A DNA stretch of 64,000 nt from a virus (IMGVR_UViG_2799112278_000002:1-64000), one strand, 5' to 3'; numbered from the stretch's first letter, positions 8,296-44,042 are shown. A program made the numbers and translations. Notes: a model not told the origin generated them from the letters alone.

Positions 8296-11200
8296 TTACT
8301 TCTTTTCTTTTTTCAACACATTATCAGTTGCTTGCTTATAAATACTTTTTCCACCTTGCTTTTCTTGCAGCTGCTTTTGCGCTTTTTCAAAAATACTACC
8401 GGTACTGATTTTATTTTTAGTCTGAGTTTTCTTTTCAGGTAGAAATTCGCCTTTAAGTGCTTGATCAGCGATTATAACGGCTTCCCGGTTTAGTTGGTCA
8501 ATTTGCTCTCGCTTAGATTTAGAATCAATTGTTTGAGATACCAGTATGGTCTGTGATTGATCCCTGTTATCTTGCAGTGCCTTACTTGCCAACCGATACA
8601 TTTTTAAGTCCGGTGGAACAGGAACTTCATCGCGAAGCTCTTTTGTGCTTTTTCCTGTTGCTGCAGCTGTATCCATTAATTGCACTTTATGGGCCTGTTC
8701 AAGTTCCTCTAACTGCTTATAGAAGTCACCGATATTATCCGCATTGCGATAATTTTGAGTAAAGAAACGACGCACCACCGGCCATTCCTGCCAGTATCTC
8801 ATTGGGGCATTTTCGTATTTACCATAAGCGAGATCGATGGATTCAGTTATTGTAGTACCAACACCACCGGTATAACCACGAATGTAGTTATCTACAAACC
8901 GGGGAGATACGCCAAAAATTTCACCGACTTTTCTAGCGATCAATGTCGTACTGGGGCCATATTGACGTTCAGGCGGTAAAGTTTTTTCACCCTGAGGAAC
9001 AATGCTTTTATCCGAAAACAGACTGTAATTTGACATGTGTTCGTACACAGGTGTTATGGCCGTAGGTAAAAGAGTCGGCAACTGATTGGTAAGCAGCTTT
9101 CCCACTTGCTTGAAAGCGTCAGGATTATTTTGTACGGCCCATTCCATAAACCGAACCGGCATCGTTGCAAACATTGTTCCAGCCAAAAACGGTTTTGGCA
9201 CACTGAAAGTGAAAGTGTCATTGATTGGCACATTCCAGAACATATCTTTACGCCATTGCGGTAGTTTCTTGTATCGATCGTCATCTTTATACATCCACCA
9301 TAATAGCAGTGAAGGGATTGTAAGCAAGACTATATGCTTAACCCACGCTTGCATGGTTCGATCATACACAACATCCTTAACACTACCTTTACCCGCAGCT
9401 ACATCATTAATTTTTTCTTTTAACTCATTACCGCCAGTAAATAAGACTCTAAATACTTTATCCCAATCAAGAATAGTTACTTTACTAAATACCGCCACTC
9501 GATTCCATACAACGGATGCAGGGCCACCTTTTGAGAAATCTATCGTTAAATCTCTTGCATTAAAAGCTCTTTCCGGTAGACTGAATCCTTGTTCTTTCTC
9601 ACGAATATATTCACCGACACGCGGCGCAGACTCTACCATTTGCCCCACACGTTCCAATAACTCAATCATGTGCATCGGGCTAAACTTCCCTAAGGCAGTT
9701 TGTTTGCGTATCTTTTTTATTGCCTCTTGGGCGAAATTACGGTCAGTAGAATAAAAATCGGCCATGGCCGTCCCGGATGATACATATTCCCACCATAGCT
9801 TATCCTGCTTTGCAATAGCCATCATCCCTCTGAAAAAATCCCCTTTAGGCATATATCCGGATGGAGAGTTAACGTAGCTTGTAACCAAGTCACGCGAAAC
9901 GTTCACGGCTAGAAACGCTGGATTAAGAGAAACAAACCCCGCCCGGGCAACTCGTACTACCATACTTAAAAACTTCAAGAATAGGTTAGATGTATCGACT
10001 TCCTGCTCCATCATAGACTTGTATACTTCCGGCACGCCTATTTGATAAAACTTTGCCTTACCATTAACCAATACCTTAAATACACTATCTTTGTCTGATG
10101 CTCCGTTTCTTACAGGGCGTTTTGCAATGATAGATTCTATCTTGCCATTATCGCTATGGGTAATAATAAGCTCATTGCCTTTTTCATCTACCGGATTTCC
10201 ATCCTTGTCGGTATTCAACCACTTAGGCTCGTTTTTGCTATCATATTCAACAAAAGTTTCGCCCTTTTTGATAATGGTTTCAGCAACATCTTCAAGAGCA
10301 ACCTCTTTTTCTGCATATGCTATTTCTGGAACCTCTTCAATTAACCATCCCATATTGGCATGGTTGTCCGCAATATCAGCAAACAGCTGCTTAACTTTAT
10401 TACGTTCAGCTTGTTCAAGCATCTTGAAGACATTGTGTACTATTGACTCTGCCGGATTCACAATATCGCGTACACTGCCTACCATTTCTTTTAAACTATC
10501 GCCCAACTTTTCATATGCAGCTTCTTCGAAAACACGCATTAAGGGCACATAGTTCGGATATGCCTTTCTCAAGCCTTCCGCTTTTCCCTTTGACACAACG
10601 CCATAGTCAACCATGATATCCATTAGAGTATTACTAAAATCAACAATTTGCCTTCCTGCATTTACTATTTCCGGCCGTGCATCTTCAACTGTATTTAGCC
10701 AATCATCATAATCAAGCGGTGCTTCTTTTTTGTTTGCTACGGTAAGCATATGTTTAGAAACAACATACTCAAATAACTCTTGGTAAACCTCTTCATTTCG
10801 ATCTGCACCGATAGAGCTCATGATGTCAGACAACGGGACAAACTTACTGAAATCTACACCCGGATGGACTGCTTTGAGGCCATCACGTACAGCCTGGGCA
10901 TTAGTGCTTTTATTTTTGCCGATACCAAGCATGGCATTAGCCTTCCCTGCTAAGCCGCGGGTTAATAAGGCTTGAATATAAGGATTCTGTTCCATTGGGA
11001 GCTTTTTACCAATCAGCTTTTCCACCTGGTCAATTGCTTGTTTTATTGGAAAACGCCGCTCAACTAATTGCCGATAAACATAAGCCAACGCTTTACCAGC
11101 CTGTTCTTTACTTTTAGCAGACAGGGATCGCAGCGTAAGCTTTTCTTTTTGATCCCAAGAAATAACCCCACTTACTCTTTCCCTGGAAGTTTGGTTATAC

Positions 11201-36110: not shown

Positions 36111-38339
36111 TTACATACCTATTTGGGCCGCGCTTAGCATTTCCCTGACGGCCGGCTGAGTCATGGTTTGTGGGTTGGGACGCTGCTGCACCTGTTGCGG
36201 CACCTGCGGTTGGCTTCCACCGGCAGCACTACTTACCTGCACGGCAGCATCATGGAACATCTGGATGACTTGCTCAGGGGGTATTCCTTGAATCATTTGC
36301 CCGACCTGAGCCTGTATTTCTGGCGGCATCTGTCCAAATAACATTTTAATCGCCCCATACAATTCTTGCGGCCCCATCTGGCTTATGGCCATTATCACTT
36401 GAGGCGGCAACTGCTGAAGAACAGGAACAAACGGATTCTGTTGCTGTATAGGTAATTCAATGCCGATCCTAGCAAGCATTTGAGCCTGCGCTTCCGGAGG
36501 AATGTCCTTTATGTTGATATTCCCAGTTAGCTTAATTGGAGTTTGTTGGCCAGCCTCTTGTTGAGCTTGCTGCCTTTCCATCCAGCGCTTCTTAATTTCT
36601 TCCCGATTCGGAATATCGGACATATCAATCAGCATGTCAAATACCATATCACCAGGTATACCAAGCTTAGATATAGCATCAACAAGCGCCCAGAATTGGC
36701 TTTGGCGCTGTGTAGCAGTGCTTGGCGTATCAGACACAACAATATCAAACTCGCCTACACTCAGGTCATTGAGCGTCTTATGTATGACACCCAATATAGG
36801 ATCTTCTACTTGGACCCTTTGATTGATCGTAATGAAATCCTGTTCGCCATTATCCCCCACGATTCTAAACGTTTTCTCATCCGTATAGTACTGTTGCACT
36901 AACCCCTTCTTGCCACGCTTGCCCCACATAATGAACAGTATCTGCTGTTTTGCACGGCGAAGATTATCAAAGAGCGCTCCAATATGAGTAACAGCCTGTC
37001 TCTGCCGGAGCTCGATCGCCTTGCCGCTTGCCGATTGCGAGATATCAGTACCAAGCATTCCTTCATTAATGCCCGATATATCCCGTATATCCTGCACAGC
37101 TTCCTGCTCAGCTTGAAACAGCCCCACCGGTGGATTCGGAGGATTAATACGCTGCAGCTTAGTCATCATCCCCGGCTTCGTTTCGATCATGACACCAGGC
37201 ATAGAGCCGAATTTGCGGACGTTCGATTTTTGTTTAGCATCGAAAACGCCCTCTTCATGAATCCAGCCACTATTAGCCTGAGTACCGAGTATATGTAGGG
37301 ATTGACTACGGCGCTTATTTACTTCTCGCTGTGGGTCCTTAATATCACGAACAACACCGGCCGGAATATCACCCTCACCAAGATAATAAGCAATAAAGGG
37401 AACATACGGAAACATGCCATGCTCATAAGGAGATTCCTTTTCTTCAAGAACATGCTCACCTATAAACACGGTGCAATAAGTCTTTGTAATCGGCAAGCTC
37501 ACCGGCCGTTTTACCTGACCGGAAACAAAATGATCAACCGTGATCTCTTCCTTTTTGAGCAAACTTTCTTTCCCATCGATCACGACTAAGTAGTATTGCT
37601 GAGATTCAGTACGCCGCCCCCAGCGTTCAACCAGCCTCAGTTTATGCGTGTTCTTTTGGTACCATAACGGTTCCAAGCCCACTAATGTAATATCTTCAGC
37701 CCGGTCATACTCATTCGTCGTAAAGTCAATGATATCGGCATGCTGCGGGTATACAGCTTTGAGCTCGTCTTTGTCTGCCCATTTACACCGGAAAAGAAAT
37801 TTAGCGTCGGAATAATCCGGCGCCACAGATTCAGGATCTGGATATATATCCATAGGGGAAACACGCTTTATCTTGATATCACCATCAAGCGAAGCATAAT
37901 CCCAGTCATAACATACCTCGAACCAGCCACGCCCGCAAATCGAACCATCAAGGAATACGGCCGACTCAACACTGGCATAATCGCACTGGTCCATAATGTA
38001 CTTGGTGACACCCTTGCGCACTGAACATAGATCAATGTCATTCTTAGTTCTCGGCAAAAACTCCGGTTCAAACCGGTTCAGCCTTTGATAACCAGAAAGC
38101 AAATTGATGAGCGGCTTTATCCGGTTAATCGTCAGCGTCGGCCTGCCTTGTTCATTAAGGATTTGCCGATCTCGATCATCCCACTGTTTGCCGCAGAAAA
38201 ACTCAATGTCTTCTCTGGCCTCAACTCGCCAGTCTCTATCCTTATCGACACTCGCTCTAAATTCGTCGCGGTATCGCATAAATTCCGGGCTATGGTCACT
38301 TTCTACTGTATCTTCCATAGGAACAGCAAACAAACTCAA
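36111..38339 (-). CDS. Portal protein (P22-like)
   Basis: FFCGKQW, PTLTINRIKP, DGSICGRGW, IKDPQREVNKRRS, DISGINE, SGKAIELRQ; Q-rich barrel tail. Confidence 0.9.
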   Translation of the reverse strand: MSLFAVPMEDTVESDHSPEFMRYRDEFRASVDKDRDWRVEAREDIEFFCGKQWDDRDRQILNEQGRPTLTINRIKPLINLLSGYQRLNRFEPEFLPRTKNDIDLCSVRKGVTKYIMDQCDYASVESAVFLDGSICGRGWFEVCYDWDYASLDGDIKIKRVSPMDIYPDPESVAPDYSDAKFLFRCKWADKDELKAVYPQHADIIDFTTNEYDRAEDITLVGLEPLWYQKNTHKLRLVERWGRRTESQQYYLVVIDGKESLLKKEEITVDHFVSGQVKRPVSLPITKTYCTVFIGEHVLEEKESPYEHGMFPYVPFIAYYLGEGDIPAGVVRDIKDPQREVNKRRSQSLHILGTQANSGWIHEEGVFDAKQKSNVRKFGSMPGVMIETKPGMMTKLQRINPPNPPVGLFQAEQEAVQDIRDISGINEGMLGTDISQSASGKAIELRQRQAVTHIGALFDNLRRAKQQILFIMWGKRGKKGLVQQYYTDEKTFRIVGDNGEQDFITINQRVQVEDPILGVIHKTLNDLSVGEFDIVVSDTPSTATQRQSQFWALVDAISKLGIPGDMVFDMLIDMSDIPNREEIKKRWMERQQAQQEAGQQTPIKLTGNINIKDIPPEAQAQMLARIGIELPIQQQNPFVPVLQQLPPQVIMAISQMGPQELYGAIKMLFGQMPPEIQAQVGQMIQGIPPEQVIQMFHDAAVQVSSAAGGSQPQVPQQVQQRPNPQTMTQPAVREMLSAAQIGM

Positions 38340-38755
38340 CCACCTCCACCTTTACGATTATTGGACCGCAAATACTCCTGAACCAGTTCAGGATTTACAA
38401 TGCTATGCTTACTGACCTCCTGCACTTCGTTATCAGAAGCCGCAGGATCGTACTTGCTTTGTATGAAAAGGTCAAGAAGTGTTTTGTACTTATAGGTGGG
38501 ATGGTCCGGCAGTTTCCATGGTGATGTGAAATGCACCAAGCCATCAGATTGAACGGATGTTTGTGCAGCAGGATCTCCAGCCTGTTGCGCTTTATAGAAT
38601 CCACGGTAATCGTAATGATGGTCTGGGCTATCAGGGTTAGGATCAAGTTGAAAGCCAGTCTTTATCGCAATACCATTGATAGTATCACCGTACCATTTCC
38701 TAAAAGCCTGTTCTTCTTCCGGATTTAACGTTACCACCCAGACCACCACCCACAA
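38336..38755 (-). CDS. Hypothetical protein (true start probably ~38737)
   Basis: YDYRGFYK..HFTSPWKLPDHPTY motif; overlaps the portal start. Confidence 0.55.
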   Translation of the reverse strand: MWVVVWVVTLNPEEEQAFRKWYGDTINGIAIKTGFQLDPNPDSPDHHYDYRGFYKAQQAGDPAAQTSVQSDGLVHFTSPWKLPDHPTYKYKTLLDLFIQSKYDPAASDNEVQEVSKHSIVNPELVQEYLRSNNRKGGGG

Positions 38756-38773
38756 AATAAAATAAACGGCCTA

Positions 38774-39034
38774 TTAGCCGTTTTTAACCGTAAAGCGAAT
38801 TGCAGACCTTTCTTCGCCGTCAATTTCCGTGTTAGCAAAACCCGGGATACACACCAAGTCAACTCCTTGCGGCGCTAAAAAACCTCGCGCAATGGCAATT
38901 GCTTTGACCGCCTGGTTTACTGCACCAGCACCGATTCCTTGCACCACTGCCTTTCCTTGCCCACGCACTGCACCAGCAATTGCACCAGCTACTTTACCAG
39001 GTACTGAATTAGACGATACTTTAATCAATTCCAT
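38774..39034 (-). CDS. spoVS: Stage V sporulation protein S homolog
   Basis: KVS..S.P..VAGAIAG..IGAGAVNQAVKAIAIARGF.AP.GVDL.CIP.F...IDGEER.AI, full 86-aa family signature. Confidence 0.93.
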   Translation of the reverse strand: MELIKVSSNSVPGKVAGAIAGAVRGQGKAVVQGIGAGAVNQAVKAIAIARGFLAPQGVDLVCIPGFANTEIDGEERSAIRFTVKNG

Positions 39035-39090
39035 GTTTGTTTCACTCCTTAATTTGCGTTTAAAATATAAACCATCTTTGACGGTCTATT

Positions 39091-39312
39091 TCATGAAAGA
39101 AAACCTATTTTGTTTAACAGCTTAGGCTCCAGTACACAAACAACATTTACATTTTTCATTTCAAAGCCGGTTTTGCCCTCACAATCCCTAAGCTCAATGA
39201 GGCCATCAATTTTATTAATAAACTTGTCATATACCGCTTTAGCCTCTTCATCTTTTACATTGGTAAAATACAGTACATGTCCGCTTATTAAATTAACCTC
39301 TAAATCTTTCAT
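39091..39312 (-). CDS. Hypothetical protein
   Basis: 73-aa ORF abutting neighbours in the operon. Confidence 0.55.
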   Translation of the reverse strand: MKDLEVNLISGHVLYFTNVKDEEAKAVYDKFINKIDGLIELRDCEGKTGFEMKNVNVVCVLEPKLLNKIGFLS

Positions 39313-39693
39313 TTACCGACTAGCCGGATGCTGGCACTGCAAATGATAACCTTCTAACTTCCAAATTTGACTGGCAGCATCTTCCCTTGCATATGTCTTG
39401 CCAATCGCCATATCGAAGTTGGCCGGATCAACACAACTGCCGGTACCGACGATTTCAAAACCATTCTTAAGGGTTAACAAGCACACGACTGTTTTCTTCC
39501 CCATTTTGATATACTCTTCAGATACAATGGCCTTGTCGATATCTTCCTGAGTTAAACTTACTTTGCTTGCATTTAAACTTACGGCAGCGGCTGGACCATT
39601 TGGCCACGTATGACCGCAGCTGCCGCAGATATTATTTCCATTAGGCCTTCTTTCGGTAGATACCCTAACACCCTGGCACTTTGGACATTTCAT
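39313..39693 (-). CDS. Zn-ribbon + phage gp49/66-family domain (Acb4-like sponge candidate)
   Basis: CPKC..CGSC followed by TVVCLLTLKNGFEIVG..SCVDPANFDMAIGK..IWKLEGY. Confidence 0.7.
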   Translation of the reverse strand: MKCPKCQGVRVSTERRPNGNNICGSCGHTWPNGPAAAVSLNASKVSLTQEDIDKAIVSEEYIKMGKKTVVCLLTLKNGFEIVGTGSCVDPANFDMAIGKTYAREDAASQIWKLEGYHLQCQHPASR

Positions 39694-39707
39694 AGTAATT
39701 CCTCCTG

Positions 39708-40226
39708 TCACTTTAAAAACAACCGCAAATGTTTTTCTACATCCTCAGACGAAAACATAATTCCCTCATCAGAAGTTGGTACTTGCAATTGCTTCTCCAT
39801 CCGATTAATAATTTTTTCATCCAGCCGTGAAATGGCTCGATTCCTTTCGCGGCAAACGTCTCCCGTCGTATCAACATTATAAATAACCAGAGTCTTACCA
39901 AACTCCCAGGCTATGTGCCGCCACATCTTACGCCGTTCAACAGTAGTATTAGTTGCATCAATAATGACTGTGTATCCTTGTTTTAGTAGTGTTCTGGCCA
40001 TGATCTGGGCTGTAGCCCACACAAACGGTTCAGCTAAATCAATAAACTGATTACCATGCATAGCTAACCTGATCGTGTCTGGACAAACAACCGCAACTTT
40101 GGCCGTAAAGCGTGAGCATTTTTCGACTAGTGTACTTTTCCCGCTTAACGGTAATCCCACTGTGATAATTAAGTCACCATGATGCAAAGGGTTTCGTGTG
40201 TTTCCATCATTTTGCATATTCATCAC
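39708..40226 (-). CDS. AAA_33/polynucleotide-kinase-like P-loop kinase
   Basis: VGLPLSGKST, VCPDTIR, IIDATNTTVERR, RERN. Confidence 0.8.
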   Translation of the reverse strand: MMNMQNDGNTRNPLHHGDLIITVGLPLSGKSTLVEKCSRFTAKVAVVCPDTIRLAMHGNQFIDLAEPFVWATAQIMARTLLKQGYTVIIDATNTTVERRKMWRHIAWEFGKTLVIYNVDTTGDVCRERNRAISRLDEKIINRMEKQLQVPTSDEGIMFSSEDVEKHLRLFLK

Positions 40227-40237
40227 CCTTTATTGCG

Positions 40238-40621
40238 TTATACCTTATTCATTCCCTCTACTCCGCGATTCTCACGGCCAATTGTACGTTTGCGCAACCA
40301 CAACAAAGCCTCTTCCAGTTTAGTAATGGCTACTGCGTTATCCCGGCAGGCAAACGGCCCCTTCTGGTAATGTTCCAGTCGGCAGATGATCATTGCAATC
40401 AAATCCTCATGGTTGACACCATTAACTCCACGTTCTTTAATAGGACCTTCTTGGAAGTGAATCTCCGCTAACGGAGTACCTGAACCATCCTTATTGCTTG
40501 CAATTACAGTAAAACAATGGGGTGCTCCAAACTGCATCAATTCCGTAGGTTCGTGATAAACCTCAGTGTATTTGCTCGTAAGCAGGTCATGTTGCAGTTT
40601 AACATGCTTTTCTTCAGACAT
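40238..40621 (-). CDS. tad1: Tad1-family anti-Thoeris/anti-CBASS sponge protein
   Basis: GAPH, IHFQEGP..GV..EDL....RL..YQ.GPF.CRDNA.A.TKLEEAL.WL..R..RE.RGVEG matches the Tad1 signature as recalled. Confidence 0.85.
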   Translation of the reverse strand: MSEEKHVKLQHDLLTSKYTEVYHEPTELMQFGAPHCFTVIASNKDGSGTPLAEIHFQEGPIKERGVNGVNHEDLIAMIICRLEHYQKGPFACRDNAVAITKLEEALLWLRKRTIGRENRGVEGMNKV

Positions 40622-40673
40622 TCATTTTCGCTCCTTTGTTGAAATATAATAACCGCCCTAATATTGGAGCGGC

Positions 40674-40829
40674 TTAATGTTGTTTAACCCTTTGAGGACA
40701 ATTTGCTACCTTAGGGCTCCTATTCACTTTGCACACATGATTATTATCCGGCCATCTTTCTAAGCCGGAATTAGGAGCATACCTTGCACATTGCTCCCTA
40801 GTACAACATAACTCCCGACGTTTACCCAT
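40674..40829 (-). CDS. Small Cys-rich protein
   Basis: 51 aa from ATG 40829, overlapping the upstream stop region. Confidence 0.4.
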   Translation of the reverse strand: MGKRRELCCTREQCARYAPNSGLERWPDNNHVCKVNRSPKVANCPQRVKQH

Positions 40830-40962
40830 CTGCAGCTTGCTCACTTGCCTTACGCTCAGCAGCTTTCTTTGCGCACACCGGGCCAAGCCCTTCTTCTTTC
40901 GACTTTTGTGTCTTCAGCTTCCGGCTGCACATGCCGCAACGCTCATGTAGGATCGGATTCAA
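40822..40962 (-). CDS. Small zinc-finger protein (DUF6011-like), not in the ORF track
   Basis: TTG start; RCGMCSRKLKTQKSKEEGLGPVCAKK. Confidence 0.65.
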   Translation of the reverse strand: MNPILHERCGMCSRKLKTQKSKEEGLGPVCAKKAAERKASEQAADG

Positions 40963-41440
40963 CTTTCTTCACCTTCTCTTTTTGCGTTATATACCGAACG
41001 CCACCCTTAGGTACGCTTGTCTGGTAGCCATTATCGCCTTTTAAAACATAGCAATCAGAATAATCTTCAACACTTTTGCAATCAAAATCAGTTACATTGT
41101 TATCATGCCAGCAGACCCGAACTGTTAAAATTGGCCTATCGCCAACTTCCCGATATGTTTTTGCATAGATACCAGGCTTAATAGCATAACGTTCACCTTC
41201 TACTCCGGTAATGATATGGTCATCTGGACTAATAAAAATAGGCCCCTCACGCGTTGCAATATACGGACGAAAACATTTACATCCCCCGCACCCCTGGTTT
41301 TCCTGCCGAGAACACCCACTAAGATCAACACCAAACTCACTATAACAACCTTCTTCTGGCTTAAAACCATCCTCCATCCCCAGTTGATAAAGTTCTGCAT
41401 CCACTTCAACCGGAATTTTGAAAACCTTTGGCACGAACAA
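40943..41440 (-). CDS. PGDYG-like domain protein with Cys-rich insert and C-terminal extra domain
   Basis: YIATREG..ISPDDHIITGVEGERYAIKPGIYAKTY. Confidence 0.65.
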   Translation of the reverse strand: MFVPKVFKIPVEVDAELYQLGMEDGFKPEEGCYSEFGVDLSGCSRQENQGCGGCKCFRPYIATREGPIFISPDDHIITGVEGERYAIKPGIYAKTYREVGDRPILTVRVCWHDNNVTDFDCKSVEDYSDCYVLKGDNGYQTSVPKGGVRYITQKEKVKKVESDPT

Positions 41441-41517: not shown

Positions 41518-42915
41518 TTAAACCGCCATCCAGCTGCGCGATTCTGATTCACCGCGGTATTTATCGCGTTTCTCTTTTTCCTTCGGTTTATCCGGAGTCC
41601 ACGGCCGGGATGTACATGCATACATCGTTTCATCAAAGGCATGATCCTCACCATTGGTATCAACCTTTTCAGGATTATGCTTATCATGTGTCAGCATTGG
41701 AAATGTCCTGATTGTATGGAAGCAGGTTTCAAAGAAAGTAATCCCCGGTATCTGCTTACCCTCTTTATCGGTGTAACCGGTTAGACGGATTTTTACCTGC
41801 TCAGCGCCAGCTTCACGACCTTTAGTAGAGGGAATAAAAAGAGTCTTGCTCTTTTCAGACAAGACGTTGTTAATTTCCTCTGCGACTGTCGGACCCTCTG
41901 TGCCGGTTTTATTCCAACAAGCACTATCCAATACTGCATAGGACATAGGCAAATCTTCTTTTTCAGCTTGAGCAATCTTTAATGCAACCTGTTTAGCCGT
42001 TTCTTTGGTACCTACATTGGCCTTGCCTCCATACCCATATAGCTCACGGTATTTCCACAAGCGACTGTCATAATCAACCGCATACCATCCAACAGAATAA
42101 GGATGATAGCTGCCCCAGTCCATCGCTCGGAATCTTGTCCACTCTCGCGGAATGGCAAAAGGCTTACAAACATGCAGGGAACTTGACCACATATCGTAAA
42201 AGCGGCCGCCGGTGATTCCCCATTCGCCTTCACCATATACCTTGTAGCCTTCTGGATCTTGCAGCTTCCTAAGCTCCATACGCCGGTAATACGCTTCATC
42301 AATAAACCGGTTATCCTTATAAGTGCTGTGATGAGTGAATATATCAGGACTGGTTATATCAAAGTATTTGGCTTTAATCCAATGCGAAGCGCTGACTGGG
42401 TTAAAGCTAAACGTCATCTGGTAATATAGGTTCGGGTTAAGCAAAATGCCGCGCAGCCGATCATCTAAAATATCAACATCGGACTCATCGAGCTCCGTTG
42501 CTTCTTCTACCCATATGAAAACTAATTTGCCAAATTCAAAGCTTACTGACTTAATTTTTTCACGCTGGCTATCATCTTTCATACCACGAAAAATGATCTT
42601 ATTACCTGTCCGATTACAGACAATTTCCATTGGACTTTGCCGAACGGTCCACAATACAGATGCAAGTTTGCCACAAATCCTGTTGATTGCAGCTTTTAAC
42701 TCAGCATAGGTACTGTCCCGGTGTGATTCATCGATCTTCCTGACTACCAGTAAATTCGCACCAGCGTTCTTTGGGTCCATGAGCTTCAGTATATAATCCT
42801 GCGCTATATTTACCGACTTACCGCTACCGGCGCTGCCTTTAGCGCATCGATACCGGCACCGCGTTCTGTTAAATTCCCGAAATATAGGATTAAACTGAAC
42901 GACAGTTTCAGCCAT
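41518..42915 (-). CDS. terL: Terminase large subunit (PBSX-like)
   Basis: KGSAGSGKS, IWVEEATE, SFNP, AMDWG, EDHAFDE. Confidence 0.93.
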   Translation of the reverse strand: MAETVVQFNPIFREFNRTRCRYRCAKGSAGSGKSVNIAQDYILKLMDPKNAGANLLVVRKIDESHRDSTYAELKAAINRICGKLASVLWTVRQSPMEIVCNRTGNKIIFRGMKDDSQREKIKSVSFEFGKLVFIWVEEATELDESDVDILDDRLRGILLNPNLYYQMTFSFNPVSASHWIKAKYFDITSPDIFTHHSTYKDNRFIDEAYYRRMELRKLQDPEGYKVYGEGEWGITGGRFYDMWSSSLHVCKPFAIPREWTRFRAMDWGSYHPYSVGWYAVDYDSRLWKYRELYGYGGKANVGTKETAKQVALKIAQAEKEDLPMSYAVLDSACWNKTGTEGPTVAEEINNVLSEKSKTLFIPSTKGREAGAEQVKIRLTGYTDKEGKQIPGITFFETCFHTIRTFPMLTHDKHNPEKVDTNGEDHAFDETMYACTSRPWTPDKPKEKEKRDKYRGESESRSWMAV

Positions 42916-43429
42916 CGTCCCCACCATCGCCGTAATCAATTACGATTCTAAGCTCAGTATCAATAGGGCCACCGCCCTCACCAGTATGTTCGACCTTCTT
43001 CTGCTCCTTGTACATGCCTTTCATTTCAAAAAACAGCTTAATAGCCGAAACATCGCCCATCTTCGCCTTACGAATAAGCGCTTTCCAAACCTCTGCCGTC
43101 TCGGCATCCGTATACTGATTAATAAGGCTGTTGAGATAAGCAACAAAGTTCGGATCTTGCATCCAAACCCACAAAGTTTTATAGGTAATCCCGGCATCCT
43201 TCGCTTTTTGCTCTTTGGTCCCGCGATTTTCAGGATTAACAAGTAATCGAGCAATCGCTATTTGCTTCGCGTGAGGAACCCATTCATTACTTTTCATTAC
43301 GTCAACCGGAGTATCCGCAGCAACCTTATCTGCCGGTTTCTTTCGGGTATTTCTTGTGTTCCCCGGCTTCTTCCGCTTAGCCTTGCTTACCTTTTCTTGA
43401 CCTTCTACCTTTTGCTTTGTCATCATCAT
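42908..43429 (-). CDS. terS: Terminase small subunit-like HTH protein
   Basis: AKDAGITYKTLWVWMQDPNF..GDVSAIKLFFE..KVEHTGEGGGPI, directly upstream of terL. Confidence 0.7.
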   Translation of the reverse strand: MMMTKQKVEGQEKVSKAKRKKPGNTRNTRKKPADKVAADTPVDVMKSNEWVPHAKQIAIARLLVNPENRGTKEQKAKDAGITYKTLWVWMQDPNFVAYLNSLINQYTDAETAEVWKALIRKAKMGDVSAIKLFFEMKGMYKEQKKVEHTGEGGGPIDTELRIVIDYGDGGDDG

Positions 43430-44042
43430 CACCTGCCAATATGTTCGGAATATCAGCATCAGGCGCTGACCAATGTATTCCATATGTTTCAATAATTGCA
43501 CGGAAGTCTTCGACATCATGCGGTACCAGCTTGCCGGACATCGGTATATGCTTGAGCTCATGCCACATCAATAAGGCCATCTGTGCCTCACTCATATAAT
43601 CTACATGCGGCTCGTACACCGTAATTATGTACTGATAATCCATAAATGCCCTGAAAGGCGGCTTTACCTTACGACAGTCAGCATGAACCATCTTGCCTGT
43701 TGCCCTGTCCGTTTTAGGCTCGTAACTGAGTACATAAGCAATGTTCTCGCGGCCTATATACTCATCTATAAACCACAAATCCGGCATCTTCGAGATAACC
43801 TTGCTGGCTAATTCCCGCAGCGCCGGAGATATTTCACAGTCATAACACTGTATATCTTCAGTGTCATAGTCTTTTATGATAATAGTCTCAATGTCACAGG
43901 GAGTATCATCTTCATACACCAAGTTAAGCTCGAGCTTTATGTCGAAGCGCTTTTTTCCTGCTGCTTCCATTTGGGCCTTGTTGCGTCTTTTTAAGATTAC
44001 TCCCTTTACCGGTACAATTACATGGTCCCCTTTATCGAACAT
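43377..44042 (-). CDS. Putative phage metallopeptidase
   Basis: YIITVY..LMWHELKHI..HDVEDFRAIIETYG. Confidence 0.75.
   Translation of the reverse strand: MFDKGDHVIVPVKGVILKRRNKAQMEAAGKKRFDIKLELNLVYEDDTPCDIETIIIKDYDTEDIQCYDCEISPALRELASKVISKMPDLWFIDEYIGRENIAYVLSYEPKTDRATGKMVHADCRKVKPPFRAFMDYQYIITVYEPHVDYMSEAQMALLMWHELKHIPMSGKLVPHDVEDFRAIIETYGIHWSAPDADIPNILAGDDDDKAKGRRSRKGKQG

Follow-up and report, generated by a model that had tools for sequence, protein, structure and literature searches.

In the stretch of viral DNA analysed here (IMGVR_UViG_2799112278_000002:1-64000; the window, 64,000 nucleotides in full), the terminase gene terL and the portal gene are separated by a block of nine small genes, two of which belong to the Tad1 and Acb4 families of sponges against signalling immunity. 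We propose that the terL-portal junction of this phage lineage is probably a cargo slot in which genes are gained and lost, and that in the window a counter-defence cassette of two sponges lies there among unrelated cargo. The arrangement itself is already known, and the window is a further example of it. Because the window is part of contig 1 of a bacterial genome of 4.63 Mb in 33 contigs, the element is a prophage. The host of the prophage lineage belongs to a spore-forming group of the Bacillota. Among public sequences the closest to the prophage is a viral contig of 81.7 kb, which has also been deposited as a metagenome-assembled genome labelled Anaerosporomusa subterranea.

A variable slot between terL and the portal gene

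Every gene in the terL-portal region lies on the minus strand. The slot is bordered upstream by TerL (41518-42939; Pfam Terminase_3, E 1e-45), which is 94% identical in L001, the nearest relative, and downstream by a P22-type portal (36111-38339; Pfam P22_portal, E 5e-141). A preliminary description of the window had placed about 3.1 kb with nine small open reading frames (ORFs) between the two, and this was confirmed: the interval 38336-41440 contains exactly nine ORFs, separated by small gaps or overlapping, and is about 93% coding. From terL to the portal these encode a 165-amino acid (aa) PGDYG-like protein, a DUF6011 zinc-finger-like protein, a Cys-rich protein, the Tad1-family sponge, a P-loop kinase, the Acb4 relative, a 73-aa product, a SpoVS homologue and a protein referred to here as YDYRGF. 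For the seven ORFs common to the window and L001, the ratio of nonsynonymous to synonymous substitution (dN/dS) is 0.05-0.14 at dS values of 0.6-1.6, and these ORFs are therefore real genes under purifying selection. The two ORFs with no comparator in L001 are the kinase gene, which is backed by a strong Pfam match, and the 73-aa ORF.

The preliminary description had regarded terL and portal as normally adjacent genes. Within this phage family the statement holds, as the gap is only 19-55 bp in three distant prophages (L038, L040 and L041) from the same host order, whose portals are 44-51% identical; it is not universal, since SPP1 and phiV10 hold small genes at this position. The distant prophages were found by whole-genome searches in the host order, and a scan of the genome collection with a portal alignment gave no match.

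Closer relatives differ from one another in what lies in the gap. That of L002 contains only the SpoVS gene, that of L003 the Cys-rich ORF and SpoVS, and that of L001 seven of the nine window genes (PGDYG-like, DUF6011, Cys-rich, Tad1, Acb4-like, SpoVS and YDYRGF), without the kinase and the 73-aa ORF. In L022 (portal 57% identical) and in L005/L039 (portal 46% identical), SpoVS and other unknown ORFs are situated 5' of the portal gene and Tad1 is situated 3' of it. Five distinct slot contents were thus seen over eight related genomes, and the window has its Tad1 gene and Acb4 relative no more than 1.3 kb apart, as expected of an anti-defence island or accessory hotspot. An invariant interval would have spoken against the island suggested in the preliminary description; instead the interval is variable among relatives.

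A Tad1-family sponge gene

The 127-aa ORF at 40238-40621 encodes a Tad1-family sponge. It had been picked out as a clear Tad1 from the sequence, and the searches bear this out: a phmmer comparison gave E 9e-38 to CmTad1 (apo structure, 8KBB) over 122 residues (5-126) and E 4e-14 to CbTad1, the match to phrog_2428 has an E value of 8e-45, and the ligand residues are kept. Li et al. showed that binding was abolished by mutation of CbTad1 residues F82, N92, R109 and R113, which bind glycocyclic ADP-ribose (gcADPR) and cyclic dinucleotides (CDN), or of R90 and T97, which bind cyclic triadenylate (cA3). When the window protein is aligned with CbTad1, the four positions of the gcADPR/CDN pocket read Y, N, R and R, and both R90 and T97 of the cyclic-trinucleotide pocket are kept. 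The CbTad1 numbering was derived from a printed alignment and is consistent for all six residues.

Compared with the solved Tad1 chains (CmTad1, 8KBB-D; CbTad1, 7UAV and 8KBE-H; SBSphiJ7 Tad1), which are 123-138 aa in length, the window protein is homologous over its full length and keeps not only the pocket residues but also W103 and K106 of the hexamer interface. It differs in being about 56% identical to CmTad1, in having Y for F82 and, at the interface, E for Q98 and L for M102, and in that its gene is located in the packaging module. Ten ORFs at Tad1 loci in relatives match the Pfam family Acb2_Tad1_hairpin at E<=1e-3.

The Tad1 genes of L005 (6001-6375) and L022 (5909-6274) are 79-83% identical to that of the window, while the portals of these genomes are only 46-57% identical. 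That Tad1 should be far closer than the portals, and found in another slot (after the portal), suggests that the sponge gene has recently been exchanged horizontally between phages.

An Acb4-family domain fused to a zinc ribbon

The 132-aa ORF at 39313-39711, with a likely ATG start at 39693, encodes a zinc ribbon fused to an Acb4-family domain (Phage_gp49_66, PF13876; E 3e-25). The Pfam match extends over residues 53-125 and scores 89 bits against a cut-off of 27, while the ribbon matches Zn_Ribbon_TF at E 9e-6, which is below the cut-off of that model. The preliminary description had equated the gp49/66 family with the Acb4 sponge family, correctly, as PF13876 is defined by Acb4 of Bacillus phage SPO1. 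Chang et al. assigned SPO1 Acb4 to PF13876 and found that 3'3'-cyclic GMP-AMP (3'3'-cGAMP) was bound by all eight of the purified homologues (8/8).

Like SPO1 Acb4 (structure 9E4W), the window protein has a domain that is far above the Pfam cut-off. Six of the ten residues that contact 3'3'-cGAMP in Acb4 are identical (K36, F48, E49, F62, I66 and K81), among them the whole guanine pocket (K36, F48 and E49), and the other four are changed. Unlike SPO1 Acb4, the window protein has an additional N-terminal zinc ribbon of about 45 aa with a CxxC...CxxC pattern. This fusion was seen only in the window and in L001, and we draw attention to it as a natural Zn-ribbon-Acb4 fusion.

Sponge genes and packaging genes in other phages

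Sponge genes beside packaging genes are recurrent and not unique to this phage, as can be seen from the placement of Tad1 in L008-L010 and of an Acb4-family gene in phiV10. In L010, which is unrelated (its TerL is only 26% identical), Tad1 comes immediately after terL, with the gene for a distant P22-like portal four small ORFs further on; Tad1 precedes the portal gene in L008 and lies 3' of an SU10-type portal gene in L009. A Pfam tally of the neighbours at 12 other Tad1 loci included five portal genes within 3 kb. The slots of phiV10/epsilon15 (Uetakevirus) and SPP1 resemble that of the window in holding small, non-essential-looking genes between terL and portal. In phiV10 one of these, phiV10p03, is annotated as Sf6-gp66-like and hence of the Acb4 family, and in SPP1, where genes 3-5 occupy the slot, gene 5 has a PGDYG-like core. 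The phiV10 slot gene lies behind a terminator and on the other strand, whereas all nine genes of the window are co-oriented with the late operon, and it is the window that combines two different sponge families.

It could be argued that the whole 3.1 kb is a single counter-defence island, in which most or all of the seven other ORFs are new inhibitors of signalling immunity, either sponges or enzymes that act on the signals. There are indeed two true sponge-family genes in the block with the kinase gene placed exactly between them, anti-defence genes are known to cluster, and fusion to or neighbourhood with sponges has already uncovered new sponges (Sequestin). In L022, too, a YDYRGF homologue is found two small ORFs upstream of Tad1. 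However, this homologue is the only island protein found near Tad1 outside the slot of this lineage in all of the loci that were fetched. A tblastn comparison of all island proteins with 15 other Tad1 loci recovered only TerL, portal and SpoVS, and no homologues of the PGDYG-like, DUF6011, Cys-rich, kinase, Acb4-like or 73-aa proteins. The families near other Tad1 loci are mostly structural or unrelated, and AAA_33, PGDYG, DUF6011 and PF13876 are not among the 25 families listed in a Pfam tally of 117 Tad1-neighbour ORFs. Moreover, SpoVS is a known non-defence family that forms the fixed core of the slot, and the YDYRGF domain is associated with the portal and with proteins that carry cell-wall hydrolase domains. 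We therefore consider a single island unlikely and favour a cassette of two sponges among unrelated cargo.

Among the Tad1 neighbourhoods of L009-L016, one includes a gene for the RNA ligase RtcB (PF01139, E 4e-60), and others include genes for Mom, a DNA methylase, PhoH, thymidylate kinase and dUTPase.

The P-loop kinase

The kinase gene (39708-40226, 172 aa; Pfam AAA_33, E 8e-20) was found only in this prophage, and its product belongs to the polynucleotide-kinase/PSTK clade. The gene fills the interval from the Tad1 stop codon to the Acb4-like start. As the two sponge genes lie 15 bp apart in L001 with no kinase between them, the kinase gene is a recent and precise insertion.

The solved structures closest to the kinase are those of PSTK (3adb), Pnkp1 (4xrp) and the kinase domain of CthPnkp from Clostridium thermocellum (4jst). 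The NCBIfam models for Pnkp and PSTK match the kinase part only, with TIGR04075 scoring 35.9 bits against a cut-off of 750, and phage relatives at 30-34% identity carry the annotation polynucleotide kinase. A P-loop (GLPLSGKST) is followed by CPDTIR, which contains a D-x-x-R motif 17 residues after the P-loop, and then by a lid segment with spaced arginines. The P-loop, the D-x-x-R motif and the Arg-rich lid are shared with the RNA-repair polynucleotide 5'-kinases (T4 Pnk, bacterial Pnkp and Pnkp1) and with PSTK; unlike the enzymes of the T4 Pnk/Pnkp type, the window protein consists of the kinase domain alone, without a phosphatase or ligase domain. Neither a PF09414 ligase nor RtcB (PF01139) was found in the genome, which is 99.98% complete, and a classical heal-and-seal pathway is therefore not evident.

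A role for the kinase as a counter-defence factor is plausible. A more specific proposal would be that it is a new enzymatic factor cooperating with the two sponges, either by phosphorylating a free hydroxyl of the immune signal or by repairing RNA cut by a signal-activated or anticodon nuclease without a dedicated ligase. We give this proposal a low probability.

PGDYG-like, DUF6011, Cys-rich and 73-aa ORFs

The gene nearest to terL (40943-41440; likely true start GTG at 41434) encodes the 165-aa PGDYG-like protein, with a dN/dS of 0.135 relative to L001. The protein consists of an N-terminal PGDYG-like small beta-barrel of about 95 aa, which contains an insert with four Cys, and a C-terminal beta domain specific to the lineage; its homologues span only the N-terminal 58%. 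It scores 16.3 bits with Pfam PGDYG (PF14083) against a cut-off of 27. An ITGVEGERY core is invariant in 14 sequences and the homologue P0003 carries PF14083, from which we take the 165-aa protein to be a divergent PGDYG relative. An AlphaFold2 (AF2) model has a middling mean confidence (pLDDT, the predicted local distance difference test, of 64), and its best match in the PDB is weak (Z 4.0), to SH3/Tudor-like barrels. The PGDYG-like core is common in phages, with 75 records in varied contexts. It is shared by gene 5 of SPP1 (L046, NC_004166.2, 2063-2332; tblastn E 4e-4), which is annotated as hypothetical, immediately precedes portal gene 6 and is missed by Pfam.

A link between this protein and the sponges was offered by phrog_419, which matches the PGDYG-like ORF (E 1e-11) and, weakly, the Acb4 domain (E 0.003), as might be expected if the two occurred as a fusion. 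This would favour a single island; however, no such fusion was confirmed in real proteins. No longer homologues were found for this lead, and PF13876 is absent from three longer phage proteins with a PGDYG-like core, those of Ralstonia phage Darius, Aeromonas phage 65 and Rhodococcus phage Weasels2.

The DUF6011 zinc-finger-like protein (40822-40962, 46 aa) matches its Pfam family at E 1.8e-11, above the cut-off, and is 89% identical in L001 with a dN/dS of 0.07. Its stop codon is overlapped by the ATG of the 51-aa Cys-rich protein (40674-40829), an ATG that lies inside a frame of 70 codons. The Cys-rich protein has a dN/dS of 0.05 and keeps all of its cysteines in L001 and L003, and it has no family in Pfam, PHROGs, NCBIfam or the protein atlas. 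The 73-aa ORF (39091-39312) was found only in this prophage and is absent from L001; it has no family or homologue in Pfam, PHROGs, NCBIfam or the protein atlas, nor by tblastn against phages.

Mini-domains based on cysteine are abundant in the block (40674-40962 and 39600-39711, minus strand). Their patterns are CxxC...C in the DUF6011 protein, CCx4C...HxC...C in the 51-aa protein, CxxC...CxxC in the ribbon of the Acb4 relative and Cx8CxxCxC in the insert of the 165-aa protein, and no common explanation for them was found.

SpoVS, YDYRGF and genes outside the slot

The gene at 38774-39034 encodes an 86-aa SpoVS homologue (Pfam PF04232, E 4e-35), which scores 119.9 bits against a cut-off of 24 over residues 2-83. 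SpoVS lies between terL and portal in L001, L002, L003, L022 and L039 and is a fixed occupant in close relatives, the conserved core of the slot. It is probably a modulator of host physiology or of sporulation. Since the SpoVS family is linked to sporulation, the block could be read as lysogenic-conversion cargo (morons) that is expressed from the prophage and alters host physiology, such as sporulation, rather than serving lytic counter-defence. Two terminator-like hairpins on the minus strand bracket sub-blocks in a manner that would fit this reading: one, followed by a T-run, lies between the Cys-rich ORF and Tad1 (40651-40674; pattern scan only), and the other lies 3' of SpoVS (38764-38783; pattern scan and reading of the sequence). 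However, a scan found 12 promoter-like sites, fewer than the 17.8 expected from shuffled sequences, and none stood out, so that there is no sign of an internal promoter. All of the genes are tightly coupled and co-oriented with the late operon, and in the published work on both sponge families the sponges serve the infecting phage. Moron cargo is thus a very unlikely account of the block.

In L001 a gene for a DUF3307 membrane protein (9231-9548) is present between SpoVS and YDYRGF, where the window has only a terminator-like hairpin.

The last gene of the slot (38336-38755) encodes the 139-aa YDYRGF protein, which is made up of a conserved N-terminal domain of about 80 aa and a helical tail. 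It has no match in Pfam, PHROGs or NCBIfam. An exhaustive phmmer search recovered 324 representative proteins at E<=1e-3, in which the domain is stand-alone or contained in proteins of up to 3660 aa. Over the N-terminal 80 or so residues, E, F, W, Y, D, R, H, K and H are nearly invariant (proteins P0016-P0164). When 53 multi-domain members were scanned, the partner domains included SLT (4), phage tail lysozyme (3) and phage lysozyme (2), as well as amidase, PG_binding_1, ART-PolyVal, a crAss cargo domain and RadC. The AF2 model has a pLDDT of 84, and above 90 over the domain; for its fold, Foldseek found no neighbour in the PDB, VIA gave a best Z of 3.0, and no neighbour was found in BFVD.

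Iyer et al. (2017; PMC5512222) assigned multi-domain architectures of this kind to proteins that are packed in the capsid and delivered at invasion. The YDYRGF domain resembles these polyvalent, virion-packaged effectors in occurring beside lysozyme, SLT, amidase, ART-PolyVal and crAss cargo domains, and differs from them in that it stands alone on the 139-aa window protein and is without a Pfam family or a solved fold neighbour. We read the YDYRGF gene as a portal-linked gene whose product is probably virion-associated.

One relative, a 938-aa protein that combines YDYRGF, lysozyme and amidase domains (L043/L044, 6001-8817), gives the product on record only when TGA is translated as Trp, and genetic code 4 is probably in use on its contig.

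In the window the stop codon of YDYRGF overlaps the start of the portal gene; the homologues in L001 and L023 immediately precede the portal gene, and that in L022 comes just after it. This coupling, together with the three small terL-portal genes of SPP1 and the PGDYG-like core of the one that directly precedes the portal gene, could be taken to mean that, apart from the sponges and SpoVS, the ORFs have accessory roles in morphogenesis or packaging in the style of SPP1 genes 3-5, and are not conflict genes. However, L002 and L003 lack these genes and still have terL and portal intact, which argues that the ORFs are dispensable for assembly. PGDYG-like genes also occur in many non-structural contexts, for instance within a row of small hypothetical genes in SPO1L5 and beside thymidylate synthase in Weasels2. 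We regard a general role in morphogenesis as quite unlikely, and continue to view these ORFs as mixed cargo accompanying the sponges.

Upstream of TerL is a TerS-like gene (42908-43561, minus strand). It is overlapped, just upstream, by a gene for a putative phage metallopeptidase (43377-44042, minus strand; PF18894, E 3e-23) that is kept in L001-L003 and L039.

Proposed role and significance

From their family membership, Tad1 hexamers would be expected to soak up the gcADPR of Thoeris and the cyclic di- and trinucleotides of CBASS (the cyclic oligonucleotide-based antiphage signalling system), and tetramers of the Zn-ribbon-Acb4 protein would be expected to soak up CBASS signals of the cGAMP type. 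Together, the two sponges could then weaken two classes of immunity based on nucleotide signals during virion assembly. The remaining seven genes are heterogeneous, with SpoVS as fixed cargo, YDYRGF coupled to the portal and the kinase as a recently inserted enzyme. Of 31 genomes from the host order, 7 have ThsB-type TIR genes and 3 have SMODS cyclases, so that both sponges have targets within the wider host group.

Several observations weigh against this interpretation. In the Acb4 relative, four of the ten contact residues are changed (V56C, Y57V, N63D, which is a backbone contact, and T70Y), so that its ligand specificity may differ from that of SPO1 Acb4; Y57V and T70Y alter phosphate contacts, and the likeness to the SPO1 sequence is weak (E 1.4e-5). 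The Tad1 ORF scores 21.2 bits with Pfam Acb2_Tad1_hairpin, below the cut-off of 27, with a model that covers the hairpin part only. The lysogen itself gave no match to SMODS or ThsB, from which it would follow that the targets of the sponges lie in other strains. For the YDYRGF domain, the case for virion cargo comes only from domain co-occurrence and gene position. Finally, the ligands and oligomers proposed for the sponges, the time at which the genes are expressed and an anti-defence role for any of the neighbours are predictions made from sequence.

The preliminary description had proposed the neighbours of the sponges as strong candidates for new counter-defence factors, and this has to be adjusted gene by gene. 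The proposal is weakened for YDYRGF, and for SpoVS, which it had not listed; a counter-defence role for the kinase is plausible; and the PGDYG-like, DUF6011, Cys-rich and 73-aa ORFs are candidates by adjacency alone, of which the PGDYG-like or the Cys-rich protein might be a new signal binder. Nor do the neighbours make up a single coherent set of counter-defence genes. SpoVS is a fixed core, YDYRGF is portal-linked with hydrolase-bearing relatives, and the kinase falls in the polynucleotide-kinase clade.

The YDYRGF domain of about 80 aa, which is widespread and has neither a family name nor a structural neighbour, may merit a family description of its own. For further work on the slot we would rank the candidates in the order kinase, PGDYG-like protein, Cys-rich and DUF6011 mini-proteins, and 73-aa ORF. 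More generally, the junction of the packaging genes would appear to be a hotspot of gene exchange in these little-studied prophages of the Bacillota, one in which two sponge families have become stacked, and both the terL-portal slot and the slot right after the portal gene would be places in which to seek counter-defence genes.

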